Assembly (NCBI GenBank): GCA_024279035.1
Contig: JAJRSA010000013.1
Coordinates: forward strand, 91,889-155,888
DNA: 64,000 nt
Reading direction: 5' to 3'
Origin: Alphaproteobacteria bacterium
GTDB taxonomy: Bacteria > Pseudomonadota > Alphaproteobacteria > Micavibrionales > Micavibrionaceae
The notes beneath the pieces are model-generated. The model searched no databases. It was not told where the DNA came from and saw nothing but the letters and a program-made list of their open reading frames with translations. The position numbers were made by a program, and so were the translations under genes. This document shows, piece by piece, positions 16,498 through 60,068 of this stretch (position 1 is the stretch's first letter; each line of letters starts with the position of its first letter).

Positions 16498-19098
16498 TTA
16501 CCAGCCGAATCCTGGTTCTAGTCCAGTATTTGCAACAACTTCTTGATTTATACCTTTATTTTCAAGTTTTTTTCGAAGAAGTTTAAAGGCGTTCATTTGA
16601 ATTTGGCGCACTCCCTCACGTGTTATATCAAATTTTTGAGCAACTTCTTCTAACGTATGTTCCTCATATCCACCCATTCCTTGTCTCATCATAACAATGT
16701 CGAAATGTTTGTCAGATAATTCAGAAAGTGCCTTTTGTAGTGACAGTGATGTATCTTCTCGCATAATAGCTTCGACAGGATCCGTATTGCCTCTTTGATC
16801 GGGAAAAGTATGTGCCAAAGAATAACTTGTGTCTTGTTGGTCATTTCCCAAAGGCACATCTATTGAAGAGGTTTCTTGTTTCTTCCATGTTATAATTTTC
16901 TCCACGTACGGAACAGACTTATTCATGGCTTCAGAAATTTCTTCTAGAGTGACGTCAGGTCCATGTTTTTGCTTTAGATCGTTGCAGACACGATTATACT
17001 TAGTGATCTTATCTCCAATATTAAGAGGTTGGTGTATGGTATTTGCCTTTTCCTTAATTTCTCTGTTTATTCTCGTTTTAATTACATGAGTAGCGTAGGA
17101 GGTAAAACGATATGACTTGGCCTTAGAATCTGTGTTATTCTTCATGTCTTTTCCAGACGCTATATCCTGTTTCTTTTTATCTGGATTAAAATACTTTACG
17201 GCATCCATAAGCCCCTCATTTCCCGATTGAATGAGATCTAGAAGAGAGAGTCCTCGGTATTGGTATTTATAAGCAACCTTGATGACTAGACGTAGATTAG
17301 AATGGAAGAGAATGTTAATTGCCTCTGGATCTTGTATAGATTGTATCTTTCGTCCAAGGTCAATTTCTTGCTCTGCTGTAAGGAGTGGAAACTCTTTTTT
17401 ATGTGCGGTAACCTCTCTCATATATTGCTGGAGAGCATTAGTTTCCTCTCTATAGGCACCCTGTCCTGCGCCTGTGTTGACCTCAGAATATACGGGGTCG
17501 ACGATTTTAATCGTGAGTGTAGATTTCCCTGTAAGGCCAGTCTTCTTAAGAAGTCCTTTGACAGCCTCGTATAACTCTTCGCATCCTAGGGCGTCTGCAA
17601 AGTTATTCAGGTGTAAGAGTGCCTCTTTGCGGTAATTGCTAATTGTAATAGGTGCTTTACCAAGAGTGGTGGCAATTTGTCCCGCTAATATTGGAGGTGT
17701 GTTAATCCCCAAAGAGTGCATCATTGTCGAACGAATGTTTGGCTTTAACGTATTCAGCCACGCTTCCAGATGAGGTTGGTTTTTGGGTTGAAGAAGGATT
17801 TGTTCATTGAGCTGTACCGCTTCATCAAATGTAGCACTTATATTTTGGTCTTCAGATTGGATTGGTTCAGCAATCTCGATGGCGAGTATAGATCTTCCTG
17901 TAAGGCTTTTTTTCTCTACAAGCGCTTCAACGGCCTCATATAAGCCCTGACATTTTTCAGTGTCTGCGAGAGTCTTTAATTGTGAGAGTGCATATTTACG
18001 GTATCCCCCAATCGTGACAGGCTTTTCATCAAGCTCGGAGGCAATTTGTTTTATTAAGAGGGGGGGTGTGTTGATACCCAAAGAGTACATCATAGCTGAA
18101 CTGACAATAGGATGTAGGGCATTCAGCCACCCTTCCAGATGAAGTTGGTTTTCAGGGCGCAGAAGAATTTGTTCGTTGAGCTGTGTCGCTTTATCAAATG
18201 CAGGATTCATTTTAAAGGGGAGAGCCTCACCTGTATGCCTTTCGGCGGATAGATAAGATTCAGCCTCTTGTGCTTGTTTGGCTATGCCGACCTCATTGAG
18301 TAGCTCTAACGTTTCTTCTGTAATGAATGCGAGGACAGGAGGTGTATCTGGTTTCCCAGTGGAGAGCGCATACCCTCCAAAGTCCTCGGGTGGAAACCAT
18401 AATCCTGTAGGGCTAAGTTTTAAGGCCTTGAGTGTAAGGGGGAATAATTTTATCCCCGTTGTGTCCAGTAGATCGGCAATTAGATCATACGCCACAAAAT
18501 AGCGTTCGGCGTTCTTATCGAAGTGGATTGTTTTCCATGCTTTTTGACTATGGCTGATGTCTTGAACAGTGGGTTGTTTTAAAGTTTTCGAGAGGCGACT
18601 ATTTGTAAATCGTCTGTCGGCGATGGGGAGAGGGAAGAGGGCATGATCTGTGTGTTGTCCTAGATGTACTTCATACTCACTATCGCTCATCTCTAAGAGC
18701 TCTTTGATATGATGATCAAAAAAGACCAGGTTTTTATCGCCATGCGCGCCTATGGTGTAGACAGCGTTTGAAGAGGGCATATCCCAGTGATCATGGAAGC
18801 GTACACGAAAATTTGTTTCTGTTGTTGGAATTTCAATAATGCCTCGTTGTTTTAATCTTTCTGCAATAAGAGGATAGGGAGCCATAAATCTGTGCCGTCC
18901 ACGATCGTCAGCTCTCTCGAGATCTTGCAATAGGACGACTTGATGGGAGCCTTTTAAGTATTGAAGGTCTAAATTATCACTCTTTCTCTTTGGGAGAATA
19001 TACTTATGTTTTGATATAGAAAGTTTGGGGCTATGTATATTAGGAGAGGCTTCTTCTACATTCTTAATGGATAATGCTGCAACGTTCAAAACAATCAC
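16498..19098 (-). CDS. Sigma70-family sigma factor with a ~550-aa N-terminal extension
   Basis: The C-terminal ~310 aa carry region 2 (NLRLVIKVAYKY...LLDLIQSGNEGLMDAVKYF...FTSYATHVIKTRINREI), region 3, and region 4 (LEEVAQKFDITREGVRQIQMNAFKLLRK). It is a single 866-codon ORF with a GTG start (TTG three codons downstream is also possible). AT-rich. Confidence 0.8.
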   Translation of the reverse strand: MIVLNVAALSIKNVEEASPNIHSPKLSISKHKYILPKRKSDNLDLQYLKGSHQVVLLQDLERADDRGRHRFMAPYPLIAERLKQRGIIEIPTTETNFRVRFHDHWDMPSSNAVYTIGAHGDKNLVFFDHHIKELLEMSDSEYEVHLGQHTDHALFPLPIADRRFTNSRLSKTLKQPTVQDISHSQKAWKTIHFDKNAERYFVAYDLIADLLDTTGIKLFPLTLKALKLSPTGLWFPPEDFGGYALSTGKPDTPPVLAFITEETLELLNEVGIAKQAQEAESYLSAERHTGEALPFKMNPAFDKATQLNEQILLRPENQLHLEGWLNALHPIVSSAMMYSLGINTPPLLIKQIASELDEKPVTIGGYRKYALSQLKTLADTEKCQGLYEAVEALVEKKSLTGRSILAIEIAEPIQSEDQNISATFDEAVQLNEQILLQPKNQPHLEAWLNTLKPNIRSTMMHSLGINTPPILAGQIATTLGKAPITISNYRKEALLHLNNFADALGCEELYEAVKGLLKKTGLTGKSTLTIKIVDPVYSEVNTGAGQGAYREETNALQQYMREVTAHKKEFPLLTAEQEIDLGRKIQSIQDPEAINILFHSNLRLVIKVAYKYQYRGLSLLDLIQSGNEGLMDAVKYFNPDKKKQDIASGKDMKNNTDSKAKSYRFTSYATHVIKTRINREIKEKANTIHQPLNIGDKITKYNRVCNDLKQKHGPDVTLEEISEAMNKSVPYVEKIITWKKQETSSIDVPLGNDQQDTSYSLAHTFPDQRGNTDPVEAIMREDTSLSLQKALSELSDKHFDIVMMRQGMGGYEEHTLEEVAQKFDITREGVRQIQMNAFKLLRKKLENKGINQEVVANTGLEPGFGW
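17461..18198 (-). repeat. Intragenic tandem duplication, 2 x 369 bp (2 x 123 aa), within the sigma-factor extension
   Basis: TTCCAGATGA...TTGTTC(A/G)TTGAGCTGT recurs with an exact 369-nt offset (17764 vs 18133). The protein units start FDKATQLNEQILLRPENQ and FDEAVQLNEQILLQPKNQ. Confidence 0.85.
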
Positions 19099-22275: not shown

Positions 22276-23600
22276 GAGGGTTTCCCCTCAAAACTCTCAA
22301 ACAATTTCTGTGCTTTATCTAACGTTTCTTGATACTCCTCTTCAGGATCAGAGTCGGCCACAATCCCTCCGCCTGAAGAGAGATAGACGGAGGTGTCTTT
22401 AAATATCAGCGTGCGGATGAGGATGTTCATGTCCAGAGTGCCGTCAAAGCCGAGTGTGCCAAGTGAGCCACAATAGGCATGGCGGCGGACGGGTTCGATC
22501 TCGTCGATAATTTCCATGGCGCGGATTTTAGGTGCACCCGAGATCGAGCCTCCAGGGAAACAGGTGCGCAGGAGGTCGAGGGCGGTGTGCTCTGACTTGA
22601 GAGTGCCTGTGACTTTTGAGACCAGATGATGGACGTTGGCGTAGCTTTTGAGAGTGCACAGCTCTGGGACATTTATAGAGTCGGCCTGACAGGTGCGGGA
22701 GAGATCATTGCGGAGGAGATCCACAATCATAATATTTTCAGCACGGTTTTTCTCACTTTTTTGAAGGTGAGTGGGATCAGTATGACGGGGCGCTGTGCCT
22801 TTAATGGGGGAGGTTTCGACCTCTCCTTTGTGAGTGAGGGTTAAAAACTGTTCGGGGGAATTACTAGAGATGATGATGTCTCCTGTCTTCATATAGCACG
22901 CATAGGGCGCAGGGCTGAGAATGCGCAGATGGCAATAATGGGCATAAGGATCAAAATCATCGGGGAGAGGGGCTGTAAATCTCTGGGCAAGGCAGGCTTG
23001 GAAAATGTCACCAGCGTGAATGTAGTCAATCACCTTTTGAATGGAGGCTTTATAGCCTTCTTTTGTTTGGTCGGGAGTCCATATGAGGGAGGGAGACTTT
23101 GCAGGCGATCGTTTTTTCTGTTGAAGACGTATTTCTAGTGCTTGAAAATGGTTCTGTGCCTGAGATTCACTCGGGGCGGTGACAAAAAAGGAGAGGATCT
23201 GTGTCTTATGGTGAAAGACGAGAACTTTGAGATAGACCCCCACACTTATATCAGGGAGCGAAAAGCTGTCTCGTGCCTGAGAGGGCATTTTTTCTGTCGC
23301 GCGTCCGAGATCATAGCTAAATAGTCCCGCGAGACCTCCTGTAAAATAAGGGTGCTCTGCGTGTGTCTCTGGAGCATAGCGTGTGAGGAGTGTTTGGAGG
23401 TGTTTAAATGGAACCTCTGTTGGCTGAGTGGCTTTAAAGTCGAATGTCTCTATGGGATCAAACGCAATGATGCTCACAGGCGTATCTGCGTATTCTCGAT
23501 CCAAAAAAAGAGCATCAGGCTGATCCGCAAACAGCGTAAAGACTGTCTGGGGGGGCTGATAAGGATAGGATGTGCAATATGTTTTCATGTGTACCGTCAT
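22272..23600 (-). CDS. pabB: Aminodeoxychorismate synthase component I
   Basis: 442 aa. Chorismate-binding motifs PGGSISGAPK and YCGSLG. The first ATG lies inside repeat 23596-23663; an alternative start is Met5 at 23588. Confidence 0.85.
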   Translation of the reverse strand: MTVHMKTYCTSYPYQPPQTVFTLFADQPDALFLDREYADTPVSIIAFDPIETFDFKATQPTEVPFKHLQTLLTRYAPETHAEHPYFTGGLAGLFSYDLGRATEKMPSQARDSFSLPDISVGVYLKVLVFHHKTQILSFFVTAPSESQAQNHFQALEIRLQQKKRSPAKSPSLIWTPDQTKEGYKASIQKVIDYIHAGDIFQACLAQRFTAPLPDDFDPYAHYCHLRILSPAPYACYMKTGDIIISSNSPEQFLTLTHKGEVETSPIKGTAPRHTDPTHLQKSEKNRAENIMIVDLLRNDLSRTCQADSINVPELCTLKSYANVHHLVSKVTGTLKSEHTALDLLRTCFPGGSISGAPKIRAMEIIDEIEPVRRHAYCGSLGTLGFDGTLDMNILIRTLIFKDTSVYLSSGGGIVADSDPEEEYQETLDKAQKLFESFEGKPS

Positions 23601-23663
23601 CCTGAAGGTGTTTCAGGATCTCATGCCTCTATTCACCAGATCCTGAAACACGTTCAGGATGAC
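23596..23663. repeat. Family A double-hairpin palindromic repeat (GTCATCCTGAA...TTCAGGATGAC)
   Basis: 68 nt, with terminal inverted GTCATCCTGAA/TTCAGGATGAC and each half itself a hairpin. About 85 percent identical by eye to 59983-60051. Confidence 0.8.
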
Positions 23664-23685
23664 GCTGTAGTGAAGGTCATGTGTC

Positions 23686-25701
23686 TTATTTATACAACGA
23701 CAATTTCCCCGTGAGTTCTTTGAGATTCGATGTTTTTCCAAAGAGAGACAGCACAACATACTCAACCTCCTCGTCTTTTTTAGTTTTGAGGGAGGCGACT
23801 TGCTCTTTCGATGAGCCTAACTGCATATCTTTTGTGAAATCCGTAAAGGGCAGGTTTTTGTCCAACGCCTGCTGACGGATTTTACGGATTTGATTGCCAT
23901 TCTTTGCTTTTAAAATAATGACAGGATAGTGAGAGACAGAGGGGTGAATATTGCCGTCTATATCCTCATAATTAATCAAACAAAGATCTTGATCTTTGGC
24001 TTCTCGTCCAGAGAGCCCCACCATAGAATGTCCAATCGCATTCATAACTCGCCCTGTGTCGGTCTCTTTCCCGTTCACCACAACGACAAAACGATACTCA
24101 CTGTCATCAACAGTGAGATAACGGTCATTGTTCTCTTCTTTGGCCTCTGGCACGGAGGATAAAGGTTTGGAGGGGGAGGGCTCTGCCTTTGCAAAATTAG
24201 GACGTAACGTTGGAAAGCAGATGACGTCTCGGATGTTGGGTGAGTCTGTGAGGAGCATCACAAGACGGTCAATGCCCATACCCCATCCTGCTGTAGGAGG
24301 GAGACCGACTTCAAGAGCTGTAATATAATCTTCATCCAGCATTTGCGCTTCCTCATCTCCAGCCTCTCGTTGAGAGACTTGTTCTTCAAAGCGCACTCTT
24401 TGGATGGCTGGATCATTAAGCTCTGTAAAAGCATTAGCAATTTCCCAACCATTCACAAAGCTCTCAAAACGTTCTACAAGTCGAGGTATGTCTCGATGAC
24501 CTTTTGCCAAAGGTGATATTTCAAAGGGATGGTTAATGACATGGGTTGGTTGAATGAGGGTGTGTTCTACTTTTTCATCAAAGCAGGCTTCCACCACTTG
24601 CCCCCAGTTGGCGGTACGTTCAACATGCACACCTGCTTTTAAAGCGGTTTTTTGTGCCTCTTCGGCCGTCTCAATTACCATAAAATCAATGCCCGTTTTA
24701 TCTTGAACAAGATCACACATGGACGCTCGCTTCCACGGACTATTGAAATCAACGCGTTGTTCGTCAATAGTAATGACGCGAGATCCATGGATATGTTCGA
24801 CAGTCTGCCCGACAAGATCCTCTATTAAGTCCATCATATCATTATAGTCTTTAAAGGCATGGTATCCTTCAATCATTGTAAATTCTGGATTGTGTTTAAT
24901 GGAAACACCTTCATTGCGGAAGTTCCTATTAATTTCAAACACAGAATCTGCAATACCGCCAACAATCAAGCGTTTTAGTTTTAGTTCAGGGGCAATGCGG
25001 AGATAAAAGTCATGGTCAAGCGCATTATAGTGAGTCACAAAAGGCTTTGCTGATGCACCTCCTAATATTTCATGGAGCATTGGGGTTTCCACCTCTAAAG
25101 CGCCAGCATCTTCCATGTAACGACGAATGAACGAGACAATTTTGGAGCGTGTGCGTAAAGTTTCTCGACTCTCCTCATTTACAATCAAATCCACATAGCG
25201 CTGGCGATAGCGTTGTTCGACATCCGTAAGTCCATGATGTTTATCTGGCAAAGGCTGGAGGGATTTTGTAAGCATGTGAAGCTCTGTTGCTCGCACAGAG
25301 AGCTCCCCTCGAGGAGTCCGACGCATTGTGCCTTTAACGCCTATAATATCACCCAAATCCAGAAATTTGAGTTTCGCAAGCTCATCCTCAGACATGGATT
25401 GCTTGTGACAAAAGACTTGAATACGTCCAGAGGTATCCATCACATCAATAAACATCCCGCTATTGCGCATCGCCATCACGCGCCCTGCTACGGAGACTGT
25501 GTCCTTCGTTTCCGTATCATCCGCAAGGTCTTTATATGTGTCTTGTAACGCATCGGCCATGTCTGTGCGGTCATAGACATGCGGATAGGGATCTAAACCA
25601 GAGTCAATTAACGCCTTGAGTTTAGCTTCTTTCGCAGCTCTTGGATCGCCTGCGGTTGAGTTTGAATTCTGTGTCTGGTTTTTTGGATGCGTTTGTGTCA
25701 T
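23686..25701 (-). CDS. lysS: Lysine--tRNA ligase (class II) with a ~170-aa C-terminal extension
   Basis: OB-fold anticodon-binding domain and class II motifs (FYLRIAPELKLKRLIVGG, FRNEG, GWGMGIDRLVMLL). The core ends near aa 501 (VICFPTLRP). A Pro/Ser linker and a 135-aa extra domain follow. Confidence 0.92.
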   Translation of the reverse strand: MTQTHPKNQTQNSNSTAGDPRAAKEAKLKALIDSGLDPYPHVYDRTDMADALQDTYKDLADDTETKDTVSVAGRVMAMRNSGMFIDVMDTSGRIQVFCHKQSMSEDELAKLKFLDLGDIIGVKGTMRRTPRGELSVRATELHMLTKSLQPLPDKHHGLTDVEQRYRQRYVDLIVNEESRETLRTRSKIVSFIRRYMEDAGALEVETPMLHEILGGASAKPFVTHYNALDHDFYLRIAPELKLKRLIVGGIADSVFEINRNFRNEGVSIKHNPEFTMIEGYHAFKDYNDMMDLIEDLVGQTVEHIHGSRVITIDEQRVDFNSPWKRASMCDLVQDKTGIDFMVIETAEEAQKTALKAGVHVERTANWGQVVEACFDEKVEHTLIQPTHVINHPFEISPLAKGHRDIPRLVERFESFVNGWEIANAFTELNDPAIQRVRFEEQVSQREAGDEEAQMLDEDYITALEVGLPPTAGWGMGIDRLVMLLTDSPNIRDVICFPTLRPNFAKAEPSPSKPLSSVPEAKEENNDRYLTVDDSEYRFVVVVNGKETDTGRVMNAIGHSMVGLSGREAKDQDLCLINYEDIDGNIHPSVSHYPVIILKAKNGNQIRKIRQQALDKNLPFTDFTKDMQLGSSKEQVASLKTKKDEEVEYVVLSLFGKTSNLKELTGKLSLYK

Positions 25702-25749: not shown

Positions 25750-26445
25750 ATGAAAAATCAAGAATATCTTTCTCAAATCTCCCGTGAGCGGGAACAGGGA
25801 AATGTTCTTATCATTGTCCTCATTACAATTGCCCTCATGGCTGCCCTTTCTTTTTCAGTATTACGAAGCAACCAAGGGGGGGATAAACTTCTCACAGCTG
25901 GGGAGGCTAAAATTACAGCGAGTAATATTCTTAAAGCCACAAAATCTATTGAAAATGCGGTGAAATCTCTTCAGTTCACGAATGGATGCAGTGGGGATGA
26001 TGTGAGTTTTGAGAATAATCTTGTTGCAGGATACACCAATGCAGGTGCGCCTGCGGATAATAGCTGTCATGTGTTTGAGCAAAATGGAGGAGGGTTGAAT
26101 TATAGCGCGCCTCCGGAAAAATCTTTGAATGTCTCAGAAGACTGGATTTTTTCAGGGGCGCATCTCATTGAGGGGATAGGGAGCGCTGTGGGAGATCTCA
26201 CCATGTATTTACGCGAAGTAAAAGACCCTGTATGTCTAGAGCTTAATCGTATGTTAGGCATTACAACCCCCACAACGATTCCTGCTGATGCTACGGCTGT
26301 GACTCTCACAAAATTCACAGGAACGTTTGCCAATGATGCGGCCCCCAATGATGATGAGGTGCGGACGCAAAATAAAAAAACCGCGTGCGTTAATCTTACC
26401 GCTTCAGGACATAATGTCTTTTATCATACGCTTATCATGAGGTAG
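25750..26445 (+). CDS. Membrane-anchored hypothetical protein with a PilX-N-like N-terminus
   Basis: 231 aa. EQGNVLIIVLITIALMAALSFSVLRS resembles the PilX N-terminal anchor of pilus-associated proteins. The rest is unrecognised. Confidence 0.4.
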   Translation: MKNQEYLSQISREREQGNVLIIVLITIALMAALSFSVLRSNQGGDKLLTAGEAKITASNILKATKSIENAVKSLQFTNGCSGDDVSFENNLVAGYTNAGAPADNSCHVFEQNGGGLNYSAPPEKSLNVSEDWIFSGAHLIEGIGSAVGDLTMYLREVKDPVCLELNRMLGITTPTTIPADATAVTLTKFTGTFANDAAPNDDEVRTQNKKTACVNLTASGHNVFYHTLIMR

Positions 26446-34338: not shown

Positions 34339-34414
34339 TGGTAGCGGAGGGCAGAATTGAACTGCCGACCTTCGGATTATGATTCCGCTGCTCTAACCGC
34401 TGAGCTACACCGCC
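34339..34414 (-). tRNA. tRNA with CAT anticodon (elongator Met or lysidine-modified Ile2)
   Basis: 76 nt, folds as a cloverleaf by hand: GGCGGTG-TA-GCTC-AGCGGTTA-GAGC-A-GCGGA-ATCATAA-TCCGA-AGGTC-GGCAG-TTCAATT-CTGCC-CTCCGCT-A-CCA. CCA is encoded. The acceptor stem has G1-U72 and a U6-U67 mismatch. Confidence 0.78.
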
Positions 34415-34481
34415 ATAAGATACAGGGTTATCGCTTTTTACTCTCTTTTTGTCAAGAGATTTTGAGAGGAGTGTTCAAAAT

Positions 34482-34660
34482 TCAAAAATGATAGAGAGGG
34501 CTGTTTTTATGATGAGGGAGAAGAGGCGCAACAATAACTGTTCGTGTGCCTTTATTGAGCAAATTAGATTGGATAATCACACAGGGTCTTTTCTTTTGTG
34601 TTTCTGCGTCTCGTGTGGGGGGTAGGTCAACCCAAAATATATTGAGTTGTTTACACACAT
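34482..34660 (-). pseudogene. MazF/PemK-family toxin remnant (frameshifted and C-terminally truncated)
   Basis: The ATG overlaps the antitoxin stop (TAATG). Frame 1 reads MCVNNSIYFGLTYPPHETQKHKRKDPV*. After a -1 shift in an A-run, the reading is KRPCVIIQSNLLNKGTRTVIVAPLLPHHKNSPLYHF*, matching the conserved KRP.V.....L......V..AP.T core of MazF/PemK. The total is far shorter than the ~110 aa of the family. Confidence 0.55.
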
Positions 34661-34887
34661 TAATCGGTTATGCTCTCAGAGAGCGTGGTCTTCCACTCTG
34701 AGAGATCTTCTTGATAGGCTGAGTCTTGGGCTTCTTCTTCATTGGCCTGTAATATGGCCTCTTCGAGTGTTCTTTGTCTCTCTCTCGTTAGAAGATCATT
34801 GATATAGGCACTCTTATTTGTGCCACCAACCTCTTGCAAAAAAGCAAAAGTCTCTGGATTGAGTGAAAAAGGTGTGCGCTCCATCAT
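34660..34887 (-). CDS. Putative ribbon-helix-helix-type antitoxin (75 aa)
   Basis: Small ORF directly upstream of, and stop/start-coupled to, the MazF-like remnant. N-terminal TPFSLNPETFAFLQE..KSAYINDLL fits an RHH beta-strand plus helix. Acidic C-terminal tail. Confidence 0.5.
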   Translation of the reverse strand: MMERTPFSLNPETFAFLQEVGGTNKSAYINDLLTRERQRTLEEAILQANEEEAQDSAYQEDLSEWKTTLSESITD

Positions 34888-35145
34888 TATGTATTACTCC
34901 TCTTTCATACGATTTTCTCATACTTGTGTATATGATATAAAGATCTTATTTTCTCTCATTTATACAGATTATCCCCTTGTTAGAGTGTGTATTTTCACGG
35001 TTCTTCATTTCGTTCCCCATTTTTCAACAAAAAAACATGACAGTGGCATAAGGCGTGTGGGTTTATGGGGAAGATGTAGAACGGTGTGTGGGGTGTTTTG
35101 AGTGGTCATAGAGTCAATATAGGATGAAAATCCTAAAATGTCAAG

Positions 35146-35175
35146 GAAAAACCCTCCCGCTTTTGGGGGGAGGGG
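35146..35175 (-). terminator. Intrinsic terminator after the last gene of the orphan three-gene cluster
   Basis: On the minus strand, a 7-bp stem CCCTCCC/GGGAGGG with a 9-nt loop is followed by TTTTT, about 20 nt after the stop at 35194. Confidence 0.6.
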
Positions 35176-35193
35176 ACAGCTATCATTGATTTT

Positions 35194-36162
35194 CTAGTTT
35201 AGTGCAAGTCTGAGAGCATCATTAAGTTTAGTTTTTTGGTCGAGTGGTAGAGCTGTCCATTCAGCTTCTTGTTGAAGAGAATCAATTTCTGAAGCTTCTA
35301 AAGCATTTACGTCACCACCGAGTCCAGCAGCCTCAGCCATTAGGTTCTTTAGGGCAGGAGAAATTTTTATTGCGGAATTATTTAATATATCTGTTAGTTC
35401 CTCATGTGTCACTGTTCCTGAGGTTCCTTGTGAATCCGTATTGCCTAGAGTATTGTTTGCAAAACTGCCTTTTCCTCCAGTATTATTTAAAATTGCCCTG
35501 TTTTTTGCATTAGTTATGTTTTGCCCAGTACCAAGAAATCCTTTGTTTAATTTATCTATTATATTTGTGATTTTGCTTTCTGCGTTTATGGCAATTTCTG
35601 GGCTAAAGCCTTTGACTCGACCAGAAACTTGATTTTGAACAGGAGCAATTGTCTCTGAGACCCATTCATTCATATCTTGTGCTCTAGTTACGATTGTTTT
35701 TGCAAGATCAGTCATCCCTAACATGGTTGCTACTGCACCAAAAAATCCAGCAATTCCGCTTGTCCAATCACTCAGTTTTTCGGCAACAGCAGATCGTACT
35801 TTAAAAATTGTTCCGAGTTGTTGTTGTTCTAAGCCACGAAAATTTGAAAGATGTCCCTCTTTTTCTGTCTTGGAAAGTTCTACCTGTGTTGTTAAAGTCT
35901 CATTGACAATAGCCAAAATCTTCGTGGCGCCATCTTCATCAAATTTCTGTATGTAACCTTGACGGCCTTTTAGGGTCTCAATAAAATTGGTATAAAGCTC
36001 TCCCTGACCAACGGCTTGTCCATATCTAAGAGGTTCATCCAAAAAAAACTGACGTTGTATAGGATCATTAGGATCAACATCTTTAATATTAGCTTTAAAT
36101 GTTGCTAATGCTTCTGCCTTTCCTATTGCGCCTGTGTTTTCATCTACCATCTCTATCTCCAA
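35194..36162 (-). CDS. Hypothetical protein (322 aa), orphan island gene 3
   Basis: Long ORF in an AT-rich region, same strand as its neighbours. One Gly/Ala-rich hydrophobic segment (WTSGIAGFFGAVATMLGM) and an Asn/Gly/Thr-rich low-complexity stretch. No family recognised. Confidence 0.55.
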   Translation of the reverse strand: MEIEMVDENTGAIGKAEALATFKANIKDVDPNDPIQRQFFLDEPLRYGQAVGQGELYTNFIETLKGRQGYIQKFDEDGATKILAIVNETLTTQVELSKTEKEGHLSNFRGLEQQQLGTIFKVRSAVAEKLSDWTSGIAGFFGAVATMLGMTDLAKTIVTRAQDMNEWVSETIAPVQNQVSGRVKGFSPEIAINAESKITNIIDKLNKGFLGTGQNITNAKNRAILNNTGGKGSFANNTLGNTDSQGTSGTVTHEELTDILNNSAIKISPALKNLMAEAAGLGGDVNALEASEIDSLQQEAEWTALPLDQKTKLNDALRLALN

Positions 36163-36258
36163 GTTTTTTGTTCATTTTTAACTATTACCAGTATTATAAG
36201 TATTTATGTTTTCTTATACAAAGTAAACTTACAAAGCATTGATTTTAAATGATTTTAT

Positions 36259-37365
36259 CTATCCTGCTTCTAAGACTGCTTGTCTAATAACATGCCTTTG
36301 TTTAAATTCTAACCCTTTTACAGCTTCAGTAAATTCTGCGTTATTCGTGATGCTCTGACGTGCTTCTTCCTTATTAAGGCCAGCATTTCCATCTTGTTGG
36401 GCAACATTATTCATGACTGATCTAATGTTTTGAAGGACATTTTGAGGGATAGATATTCCTGCATTTTTTGTAGCAAAACTAACCCTTTTCATGACGTTGT
36501 CTACAGGTTCTCCTTCTATGTCTTTAAGTTTTTGTTGAACGTATGTGTCTGCCCCAGCCTGAGTCTTTTTGATAAAGCTTGTTGCATTATCTGTAACAAT
36601 CTTTTTTCCTTCAGAAGCGAGGGATTTTTCTTTTTGATCAAGAGCTTCCTGTTTCCTTTCGTCAAATCTTTTTAATACTTCCAGAGCGGCAGCATTCCCC
36701 GTGCTACCCAGCATCTCGATATGTTTTCTATAGTCAGCGGTGTCTTGTAATAAGCTTGATGCTATCTGATCAGCCTTATAAAACATGACGGTTGCTCTTG
36801 GATCCTTAAAAGGAGCTTCATTTTTGCCTAGATGTTCAGTAACGGTCTCTGAGACAGCTTCACGTTTGAATGGTGAAATATCATTATAATTTTCTAAAAA
36901 TTCTTCAATGTGTTCATTGAGTAATCTTGTTCCTCCGATTGGGTTGTTATAGCGCCATTTAAGAAGAGTTACACCTAATTGATCATTTCCTCCAGCAAGC
37001 TCCATACCAGCTATATTAGCAATAGCTCTTACTGGATTAGGAATACTTCCAATAACTCCAGCAGGGTAAGAGGCGTAACTTAATGCAGTGTCTAAAATAC
37101 TATTGTCTTCTATCATGTCGTGATCTTTGAGTTTGTCTTGAACACCCATGCTTCCAAGGCTAAGAATGCTCACTCCTGCGTATTTTTTCCAATGATTAGA
37201 TAAATGTCCAGAAATAGCTGAAAACCTTCCAGTTGTTGCCTCAGGGTCAACGAGATTACCTATGTTATTAGGGACATCATTAGGATTGAGTGGGCTATTT
37301 CCTTCACCCGCCAACTTTTTAACTTTCTTTTGAGCCCACTCTTTCATAAATTTTGGAACTGCCAT
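36259..37365 (-). CDS. Hypothetical protein (368 aa), orphan island gene 2
   Basis: Long ORF, AT-rich. Helical and charged C-half; Gly-rich hydrophobic patches (AGVSILSLGSMGV, YPAGVIGSIPNPVRAIANIAGMELAGG). No family recognised. Confidence 0.55.
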   Translation of the reverse strand: MAVPKFMKEWAQKKVKKLAGEGNSPLNPNDVPNNIGNLVDPEATTGRFSAISGHLSNHWKKYAGVSILSLGSMGVQDKLKDHDMIEDNSILDTALSYASYPAGVIGSIPNPVRAIANIAGMELAGGNDQLGVTLLKWRYNNPIGGTRLLNEHIEEFLENYNDISPFKREAVSETVTEHLGKNEAPFKDPRATVMFYKADQIASSLLQDTADYRKHIEMLGSTGNAAALEVLKRFDERKQEALDQKEKSLASEGKKIVTDNATSFIKKTQAGADTYVQQKLKDIEGEPVDNVMKRVSFATKNAGISIPQNVLQNIRSVMNNVAQQDGNAGLNKEEARQSITNNAEFTEAVKGLEFKQRHVIRQAVLEAG

Positions 37366-37452
37366 GATACTCTTCCTTTCTTTTTCTCTTTATATTAACA
37401 TAAGTATACATAAAATATCAAGGATATATGGGTATAATACTGTTTTTGTTTT

Positions 37453-37998
37453 CTAAAACTCCATTTGATAGAGGTTTTGTTTGGAGGGTTTCTGTGCCTG
37501 TTCTTCCATAATCTGATCAGGAAAGAGTATAATCCCTCCGATTTCACTTGCAAACGCTGTTCCTTCTGCACCAACAATCACACCTGCCGATTTTGCTAAT
37601 GCTTTGACAGACATCAATTTAGCCACGGCACCCGCAGGGGCGATGTAAGATGTTATTGTTCCTGCAATATGTAAGCCTTCGTCAAAAGTGTCAATATGTT
37701 TAGAGGTGCATATATGTTGATCAAGTCTTTCTGATATAGTGCCATTTATATGGTCAAACCCTCCCCATGGCTCATTTTTCATTTGACCTGCCCCCCATAG
37801 CATTGGCACATTATTAATCGCATCAACAAGATAGCCAATGCTTGATGCTATTTCTACGCCACCGTCAATAATGCCCTTTGAAAAAACATTGGCACGATGT
37901 CGAAAGCCCGTCCCATCATTACATTCCTGTGCTGTGGTCGTGATCTGGTCAGGATAGGCACTTTGACCTGTAAAATTATCTGATATTGTGTCTACCAT
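37453..37998 (-). CDS. Hypothetical protein (181 aa), orphan island gene 1
   Basis: ORF with a C-terminal Gly/Ala-zipper-like hydrophobic region (GLHIAGTITSYIAPAGAVAKLMSVKALAKSAGVIVGAEGTAFASEIGGIILF). No family recognised. Confidence 0.5.
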   Translation of the reverse strand: MVDTISDNFTGQSAYPDQITTTAQECNDGTGFRHRANVFSKGIIDGGVEIASSIGYLVDAINNVPMLWGAGQMKNEPWGGFDHINGTISERLDQHICTSKHIDTFDEGLHIAGTITSYIAPAGAVAKLMSVKALAKSAGVIVGAEGTAFASEIGGIILFPDQIMEEQAQKPSKQNLYQMEF

Positions 37999-59924: not shown

Positions 59925-59982
59925 GTATCTCTAGTTCAATCTTGTTATTTTAAGGAGAAACATATGTCCCGCTGTCTCTCCC

Positions 59983-60051
59983 GTCATCCTGAACTTGTTT
60001 TAGGATCTCCTGCATATATTCTACCAGATCCTGAAACAAGTTCAGGATGAC
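59983..60051. repeat. Family A double-hairpin palindromic repeat
   Basis: GTCATCCTGAACTTGTTTTAGGATC...GATCCTGAAACAAGTTCAGGATGAC. Sister copy of 23596-23663. Lies between convergent acnA and the LpoA-like gene. Confidence 0.8.
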
Positions 60052-60068
60052 GGTGTGTGAAGGATCTC

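Follow-up and report, generated by a model that had tools for sequence, protein, structure and literature searches.

A lysyl-tRNA synthetase with a C-terminal DUF2000 domain of peptidyl-tRNA hydrolase 2-like fold in an alphaproteobacterial genome

The stretch of DNA analysed in this work, called here the window, comprises 64 kb of a genome of the alphaproteobacterial family Micavibrionaceae (contig JAJRSA010000013.1) and contains a gene, lysS-DUF2000, which encodes a lysyl-tRNA synthetase (LysRS) joined at its C-terminus to a domain of the family DUF2000. In the list of open reading frames (ORFs) of the window, this gene is a single unbroken ORF on the minus strand (23686..25701), with an ATG start and a TAA stop at 23686–23688; it has 671 codons plus the stop, and its 671-aa product matches the Pfam families PF01336, PF00152 and PF09391. 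The class II LysRS core, recognised by the NCBIfam models NF001756 and TIGR00499, includes aa 1–501 (24199..25701, minus strand); a linker, predicted to be disordered from its composition, its low model confidence and its variability in orthologues, includes aa 502–536 (24094..24198, minus strand); and the DUF2000 (PF09391) domain, identified with Pfam, AlphaFold (AF2) and Foldseek as an alpha/beta fold like that of peptidyl-tRNA hydrolase 2 (PTH2), includes aa 537–671 (23689..24093, minus strand). The interval 23689..24198, in which the initial annotation had noticed the extra domain and its linker, corresponds exactly to aa 502–671 of the fusion.

The core is composed of an N-terminal helix, an OB anticodon-binding domain (aa 69–143, PF01336) and a catalytic core (aa 161–499), which matches PF00152, the class II Asp/Lys/Asn synthetase core, with an E-value of 5e-85. 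The model NF001756, for lysine--tRNA ligase, covers aa 22–501 with 682 bits (cut-off, 468), and TIGR00499 scores 624 bits (cut-off, 428). The core ends in ...NIRDVICFPTLRP at aa 501, with FPTLRP as closing residues, which agrees with the end near aa 501 first read from the sequence. The encoded enzyme appears to be a housekeeping class II LysRS. LysX, in which a LysRS is combined with the MprF lysyl-phosphatidylglycerol synthase, is a precedent for a LysRS joined to a domain that uses Lys-tRNA-Lys; in the fusion described here, however, the partner is C-terminal, small and hydrolase-like. The protein of the window is not a LysX, as the model NF002821 reached 531 bits, below its cut-off of 742 and over the LysRS part only, and no MprF domain was found.

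The linker, NFAKAEPSPSKPLSSVPEAKEENNDRYLTVDDSEY, is a low-complexity segment rich in Pro, Ser, Glu and Lys, as had been described for a Pro/Ser/Glu linker of some 35 residues. In the full-length AlphaFold model, the predicted local distance difference test (pLDDT) score is below 50 at residues 496–524. The alignment of 42 fusion proteins (that of the window and 41 others) revealed a conserved core and a conserved tail, with a linker that varies in sequence and in length (27–42 aa). The linker is thus predicted to be a flexible tether of about 35 residues, and it resembles the attachment of other modules appended to aminoacyl-tRNA synthetases (aaRSs).

The assignment of the tail to DUF2000, made originally from a sequence pattern, is now given by a full-length match. 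In the search of the whole protein against Pfam, PF09391 was found at aa 537–671 with an E-value of 2.4e-28 and 99.2 bits (gathering score, 25), spanning model positions 2–133 of 133; in the search with the tail alone, the E-value was 1.8e-29 and the score 102.8 bits. The domain ends in the family motif LTGKLSLYK and has the family-invariant residues N543, N554, H558, Y578, S590, F622, M626, Q634, G655, T664, S668 and L669. The sole departure from the invariant set is Asp at position 625, where Thr is present in 83–88% of the homologues. Across 152 homologues of the tail, a set that leans to closer relatives because motifs characteristic of the query's subfamily served as seeds for the genome scan, 25 positions are conserved at 90% or more, and many of these are polar, namely N543, K545, N554, H558, Y578, D580, H586, S590, N601, Q634, T638, T664, K666 and S668. 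The number of these positions suggests strong purifying selection on the domain, and such a dense set of near-invariant polar residues would fit an enzyme or a very specific binding site.

The AlphaFold model of aa 530–671 has a mean pLDDT of 94.8. In the Foldseek comparison with the PDB, its best match was 2gax_A (E-value 1.3e-9, template modelling (TM) scores of 0.79/0.82, root-mean-square deviation of 2.4). The entry 2GAX is Atu0240 of Agrobacterium, the solved DUF2000 protein, which has about 16% identity to the tail and whose sequence is matched by the DUF2000 profile with an E-value of 1e-11. The remaining significant matches were all PTH2 structures: 1Q7S (human Bit1/PTRH2), 1XTY (S. 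solfataricus), 2ZV3 (M. jannaschii), 1RLK (T. acidophilum), 1WN2 (P. horikoshii) and 3ERJ (A. fulgidus). Thirteen chains from these six entries had a Foldseek probability of 1.00, 12 of them at an E-value of 0.001 or lower; the E-values ranged from 5e-6 to 8e-4 and the TM scores on the target from 0.65 to 0.78. Nothing else in the PDB was significantly similar to the tail model. In addition, hhalign matched the profile built from 35 DUF2000 domains to one built from five PTH2 proteins over 114 columns, with an E-value of 4.6e-5 and a probability of 68%. The PTH2-like fold, first put forward by reference to a solved family member, is therefore upheld by both the structural and the profile comparisons.

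The PTH2 model of Pfam (PF01981) gave weak matches, which are in line with homology; on the tail it scored 14.8 bits (E-value 0.033), below its gathering score of 23. Because of this score, the tail is not PTH2 proper; as judged from the profiles and from the predicted structure, it is a diverged bacterial branch of the PTH2 superfamily. The tail and PTH2 share the alpha/beta fold; the first strand; a His in helix 1 (the invariant H558 in the tail, His25 in 1XTY); a basic residue at the position of Lys18; and a C-terminal T-G-x-L-x-L motif, which is LTGKLSLYK in the tail and VTGHLKLY or ITGDLKL in PTH2. On the other hand, the tail presents a beta-hairpin (aa 575–590) where PTH2 has a helical segment, and an extra helix (aa 631–639) after the third strand; the DAGxTQ catalytic loop of PTH2 has no clear conservation in the tail; and PTH2 proteins are free-standing, whereas the DUF2000 tail is bacterial and fused to LysRS. 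Compared with standalone DUF2000 proteins such as Atu0240, the tail has the same full-length family membership, fold and invariant residues, and differs in being covalently joined to LysRS. Position 600 also distinguishes the two groups, being Lys in 87% of the fused forms and Asp in 71% of the standalone forms.

Editing modules work on or beside aaRSs to clear wrongly acylated tRNA, and the fusion resembles them in concept. As in the systems of the CP1, INS/YbaK, AlaX/ThrRS second additional domain and DTD-like types, a hydrolytic module would be appended or adjacent to the synthetase, the distribution is patchy and losable, and fused, split and free forms occur; the fold and the family of DUF2000 are, however, different. 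No known editing-domain family (YbaK/INS, tRNA_SAD, DTD or CP1) was among the Pfam matches listed for the tail at an E-value of up to 1, from which matches weaker than about 0.1 may be dropped by filters. A known tRNA-binding or editing appendage, which had been regarded as an alternative identity for the tail, was rejected, since neither Pfam nor NCBIfam gave such a match and 2GAX and PTH2 structures were all that the fold search returned. No domain dedicated to post-transfer editing or recycling is known in class II LysRS, nor is any aaRS known to carry a PTH2-like module. The novelty would be the PTH2-like fold on an aaRS, as the appended hydrolase-like module is already known as a concept.

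When the databases were searched with the whole protein, the LysRS-DUF2000 architecture was shared by 43 of the LysRS clusters among the best 120. The protein of the window is identical to one of them (P0185); the 42 further clusters, defined at 90% identity, have the same three Pfam families and hold proteins of 615–687 aa, at 53–75% identity, from NCBI, ENA, JGI and Logan assemblies. A word-indexed search with the tail alone returned 5 proteins, and the exhaustive and full-length searches gave fuller sets. The scan of one genome per species, with the close alignment A4, found 170 stretches encoding relatives of the tail, of which the best 80 were examined as loci. Continuous LysRS-DUF2000 ORFs are present in 11 alphaproteobacterial genomes of these loci, most of them labelled Micavibrio or Alphaproteobacteria metagenome-assembled genomes and two with other labels. 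The fusion is also present in four genomes of the candidate phyla radiation (CPR; L025, L061, L064 and L066), three labelled Peribacteria and one 'bacterium', and their LysRS cores are 38–40% identical to that of the window. In all these 15 genomes the order is LysRS, linker and DUF2000. Five additional fusions are the database proteins P0009, P0010, P0012, P0048 and P0051. Among the 150 best DUF2000 representatives, no aaRS partner other than LysRS was found. A frameshift or assembly error joining two genes, feared at the outset, is rejected by the continuous ORF and by the same architecture in the 42 further clusters and the 15 genomes; the fusion is genuine and recurrent. The architecture is already visible in precomputed domain annotations and appears uncharacterised; in the literature searched, no paper mentioning DUF2000, Atu0240, PF09391 or a LysRS-PTH2 fusion was found, in line with the initial statement that the function of the family is not assigned.

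The phylogenetic trees were obtained by neighbour-joining, without support values, and are indicative only. In the tree of 159 domains, all 56 alphaproteobacterial tails were included in one clade, with the split variants described below nested inside it and no unlinked standalone DUF2000 gene among them. The closest relative of every CPR tail is a standalone DUF2000 from CPR and not an alphaproteobacterial tail, and the tails of the five additional fusions are likewise nearest to standalone DUF2000 proteins and not to other fusions. The tree thus points to several independent fusions, always onto the C-terminus of LysRS. This apparently independent recurrence in Alphaproteobacteria and CPR is a stronger point than was known when the domain was first noticed.

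Within Alphaproteobacteria, the tree of LysRS cores shows fused and unfused proteins interleaved, with all basal branches fused, and it is roughly congruent with the tree of the tails. The cores closest to that of the window (P0198, P0200 and P0201; 82% identical) have no tail, and the gene of the unfused P0198 is surrounded by the same neighbours as the gene of the window. A DinG-like helicase, an MscS channel, a 230–240-aa protein and lysS are common to the window and to the unfused loci L004 and L005, in which the lysS core is also 82% identical to that of the window. The gene of the window is thus orthologous to the housekeeping lysS of its relatives. No remnant of the domain was found in four unfused relatives. 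These results are most simply read as a single ancient fusion, after which the domain was cleanly lost several times, and the DUF2000 domain is accessory and losable. A recent foreign insertion of the tail was also considered and is not supported, as the tail is similar to the core in GC content and in GC content at third codon positions (GC3) and the trees are roughly congruent.

In a few relatives, the synthetase and the domain are separate ORFs. In the locus L006, DUF2000 is in frame -1 relative to lysS, and the two frames overlap at ATA AAA AAC, where the canonical slippery heptamer A_AAA_AAC stands in phase; a single additional A would likewise restore the fusion. This may be either a 1-nt indel in the A-run or programmed frameshifting or slippage, which would give both LysRS and LysRS-DUF2000. 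The region concerned (5650–5790 of L006) is from the Logan SRR15164352 contig. In L007 and L008, which come from two independent metagenome assemblies, an in-frame TAA separates lysS and DUF2000 (positions 225–240), and, because the nearest relatives of their domain are continuous fusions (distance 0.08), either a recent split or readthrough or reinitiation may be supposed. In L002 and L003, a 147-aa DUF2000 gene with its own ATG is located upstream of the genes that elsewhere follow the fused lysS. The linkage to lysS persists, then, though the polypeptides are separate: the domain is encoded immediately behind lysS in L006, in L007/L008 and probably in L002.

We propose, with a probability of roughly 45%, that the tail is a tethered hydrolase, which would remove an aberrant acyl group from tRNA-Lys at the very enzyme that recharges it. 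DUF2000 would act in cis as a quality-control or recycling module for tRNA-Lys: as an ester hydrolase, it would free the 3' end of tRNA-Lys of the aberrant acyl group, and the attached LysRS would recharge the tRNA at once. The domain would be catalytic and its substrate would be an acylated tRNA-Lys; as to which acyl group might be removed, one plausible class of substrates is N-blocked or peptidyl-Lys-tRNA-Lys and the other is tRNA-Lys that bears a non-protein amino acid, such as an analogue of lysine. This proposal is favoured because the only relatives of the domain are tRNA ester hydrolases; because the domain has been joined to the same partner repeatedly and, as it appears, independently; because the tether is predicted to be long and flexible; because the linkage persists in the split forms and the conservation is strong; and because the domain occurs patchily and can be lost, a pattern typical of accessory factors in quality control. 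It is also favoured because tRNA-Lys is reported to be limiting in E. coli with defective Pth, according to a citation given with a caveat in PMC9973355.

Several results weigh against the tethered hydrolase. One is the score of the PTH2 model on the tail, below the cut-off. Most DUF2000 genes are, moreover, independent of lysS: around 60 of the best 80 loci are standalone genes of 140–160 aa with no lysS within 6 kb, in Vibrio, Photobacterium, Pseudoalteromonas, Shewanella, Zobellella, many CPR lineages and Anaerolineae. When 335 neighbour proteins were clustered, no family was present at more than 4 of about 63 loci, and the standalone genes had no conserved translation-related neighbour in this clustering. 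DUF2000 is also fused to a Cys/Met enzyme dependent on pyridoxal phosphate (PLP) (Cys_Met_Meta_PP, P0086), to a 2-oxoglutarate (2OG) dioxygenase of PF10014 (2OG-Fe_Oxy_2, P0149) and to a fatty-acid desaturase (FA_desaturase), and these partners other than LysRS handle free amino acids or related metabolites and not tRNA. The repeated clean loss in close relatives shows that the domain is dispensable.

The catalytic residues add to these difficulties. In Pth2 of S. solfataricus, Lys18, Asp86 and Thr90 are presumably the active-site residues. Lys18 aligns with position 551, which is R551 in the window and Arg or Lys in 84–97% of the 152 homologues. In the hhalign alignment, however, Asp86 is opposite the variable position 624 and Thr90 is opposite E633. 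In an alternative gapless register, of DFxxTM with DAGxTQ, Asp86 would correspond to Asp621 (88%) and Thr90 to Thr625 (83–88%), and the protein of the window itself has Asp at 625. Asp86 and Thr90 have therefore no confident placement in DUF2000 by sequence comparison. The charge of the domains differs too: DUF2000 domains are on average mildly acidic, with a median isoelectric point of 5.8–6.1, in contrast with 4 of 5 PTH2 proteins, which have values near 9.

The initial annotation had taken the covalent linkage as direct evidence that DUF2000 acts on aminoacyl- or peptidyl-tRNA. The association itself has gained from the recurrence of the fusion and from LysRS being the only aaRS partner; it can no longer be called direct, given the partners unrelated to tRNA, the majority of standalone genes, the PTH2 residues without a clear counterpart and the repeated loss.

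A wider form of the hydrolase proposal, unlikely on our estimate, is that DUF2000 as a whole would be an unrecognised family of aminoacyl-tRNA deacylases, a bacterial branch derived from PTH2 whose members would strip tRNA of non-protein amino acids. If so, the tail would be the first post-transfer editing domain of LysRS, clearing tRNA-Lys charged with analogues, and the DUF2000 proteins beside or fused to PLP and 2OG-dioxygenase enzymes would protect the producer from its own antimetabolite. It is speculative that an editing activity on non-protein amino acids could explain, as self-protection of the producer, the partners that modify amino acids. Two loci have such partners: in Photobacterium halotolerans (L040, 2351–6420) and in Vibrio sp. 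MEBiC08052 (L076), a standalone DUF2000 gene is divergent from an enzyme cluster with a PF10014 2OG-Fe dioxygenase, a Cys/Met PLP enzyme and an APH-type kinase, which may be a locus for a modified amino acid.

The same partners could be explained if DUF2000 were a domain that binds or senses amino acids or small metabolites, with the PTH2-like fold serving as a scaffold for the ligand, and that modulates the attached enzyme, here LysRS, or hands substrate to it. The one feature common to the partners (LysRS, P0086 and P0149) is the use of free amino acids or related metabolites; the PLP enzyme and the dioxygenase, together with the kinase, adjoin standalone DUF2000 genes in Photobacterium halotolerans and Vibrio; the domain is mildly acidic; and the PTH2 catalytic residues are not clearly retained. 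Such a role is nevertheless rather unlikely, as the sole structural and sequence relatives are tRNA hydrolases, and as a generic sensor would be expected on several aaRSs, whereas only LysRS is found, in apparently independent lineages. The conserved basic residues R537, K545, R/K551, R609 and K666 would also suit a nucleic-acid ligand.

Somewhat less probable still, the tail could be a non-catalytic binder of the acceptor or CCA end of tRNA, comparable in its action to other tRNA-binding domains appended to synthetases. It would then be a degenerate PTH2 through which LysRS gains affinity for tRNA-Lys, or which retains Lys-tRNA-Lys or passes it on. A PTH2-like fold with no unambiguous catalytic triad, tethered by a flexible linker and dispensable in close relatives, speaks for this role. 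The many invariant polar residues (Asn, His, Ser, Gln, Thr and Tyr), however, suit a catalytic or specific pocket better, the domain is not basic overall, and the standalone forms and those fused to metabolic enzymes are hard to account for.

Four DUF2000 proteins of 217–245 aa (P0013, P0014, P0015 and P0029) have a C-terminal extension of 75–105 aa, rich in Glu, Lys and Leu, which resembles a coiled coil; the extension of P0013, the only one of the four that was scanned, had no Pfam match. Eukaryotic PTH2 proteins are reported to have non-hydrolase partners. These two observations would be compatible with a moonlighting or protein-protein interaction role unrelated to tRNA, as in localisation, complex assembly or stress signalling; such a role is improbable, since no partner is conserved in the gene neighbourhood and the repeated and specific fusion to LysRS would be left unexplained. 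Finally, a fusion artefact by frameshift or a decaying remnant without function, which the separate ORFs of L006 and L007/L008 could suggest, can be practically dismissed in view of the continuous ORF, the recurrence in 42 further clusters and 15 genomes from independent projects, the high conservation of the tail and its GC and GC3 close to those of the core.

At least 170 species-level genomes have DUF2000, among them those of Vibrio, of Shewanella and of many CPR bacteria, and the repeated fusion to LysRS is the first testable link of this family to tRNA-Lys. If the tail is a tethered hydrolase, it would represent a new class of translation quality-control factors, relevant to LysRS as an antibiotic target; if it is not, the PTH2 fold would have been reused for something unrelated to tRNA.

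In the remainder of the window there are flagellar, Tad-pilus and housekeeping genes, which agree with the placement of the window, from the genomes that carry the fusion, in a Micavibrio-like alphaproteobacterium. Neither pth nor a second lysS was found among its annotated ORFs. An anti-phage defence or a phage origin was rejected, as the searches with PADLOC and PHROGs gave no matches. Divergent from lysS, the ORF at 25750–26445 (plus strand) encodes a 231-aa protein with a hydrophobic N-terminal segment and no Pfam match; a gene for a protein of 228–254 aa occupies the same position in relatives, with or without the tail on lysS. The ORF at 16498–19098 (minus strand) encodes an 866-aa protein of the sigma-70 family, in which regions 2–4 are confined to the last 270 residues, behind an unusually long N-terminal part that lacks a Pfam match.

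A tRNA-Met gene (34339–34414, minus strand) is followed by three ORFs with no Pfam matches (35194–37998), which lie in the stretch of lowest GC content in the window (0.38–0.40, against about 0.45); the region 34339–37998 may be an island at a tRNA gene. In addition, a palindromic intergenic element of about 70 nt, similar to repetitive extragenic palindromic (REP) sequences, occurs in two copies (23595–23664 and 59981–60053), with arms of 27–28 nt and a loop of 16–17 nt. The first copy is located between the stop codon of lysS-DUF2000 and pabB and folds at -50 kcal/mol (z -8.8). Its 3' arm lies over the start codon of pabB (23600–23598), and this copy may stabilise the transcript or affect the translation of pabB.

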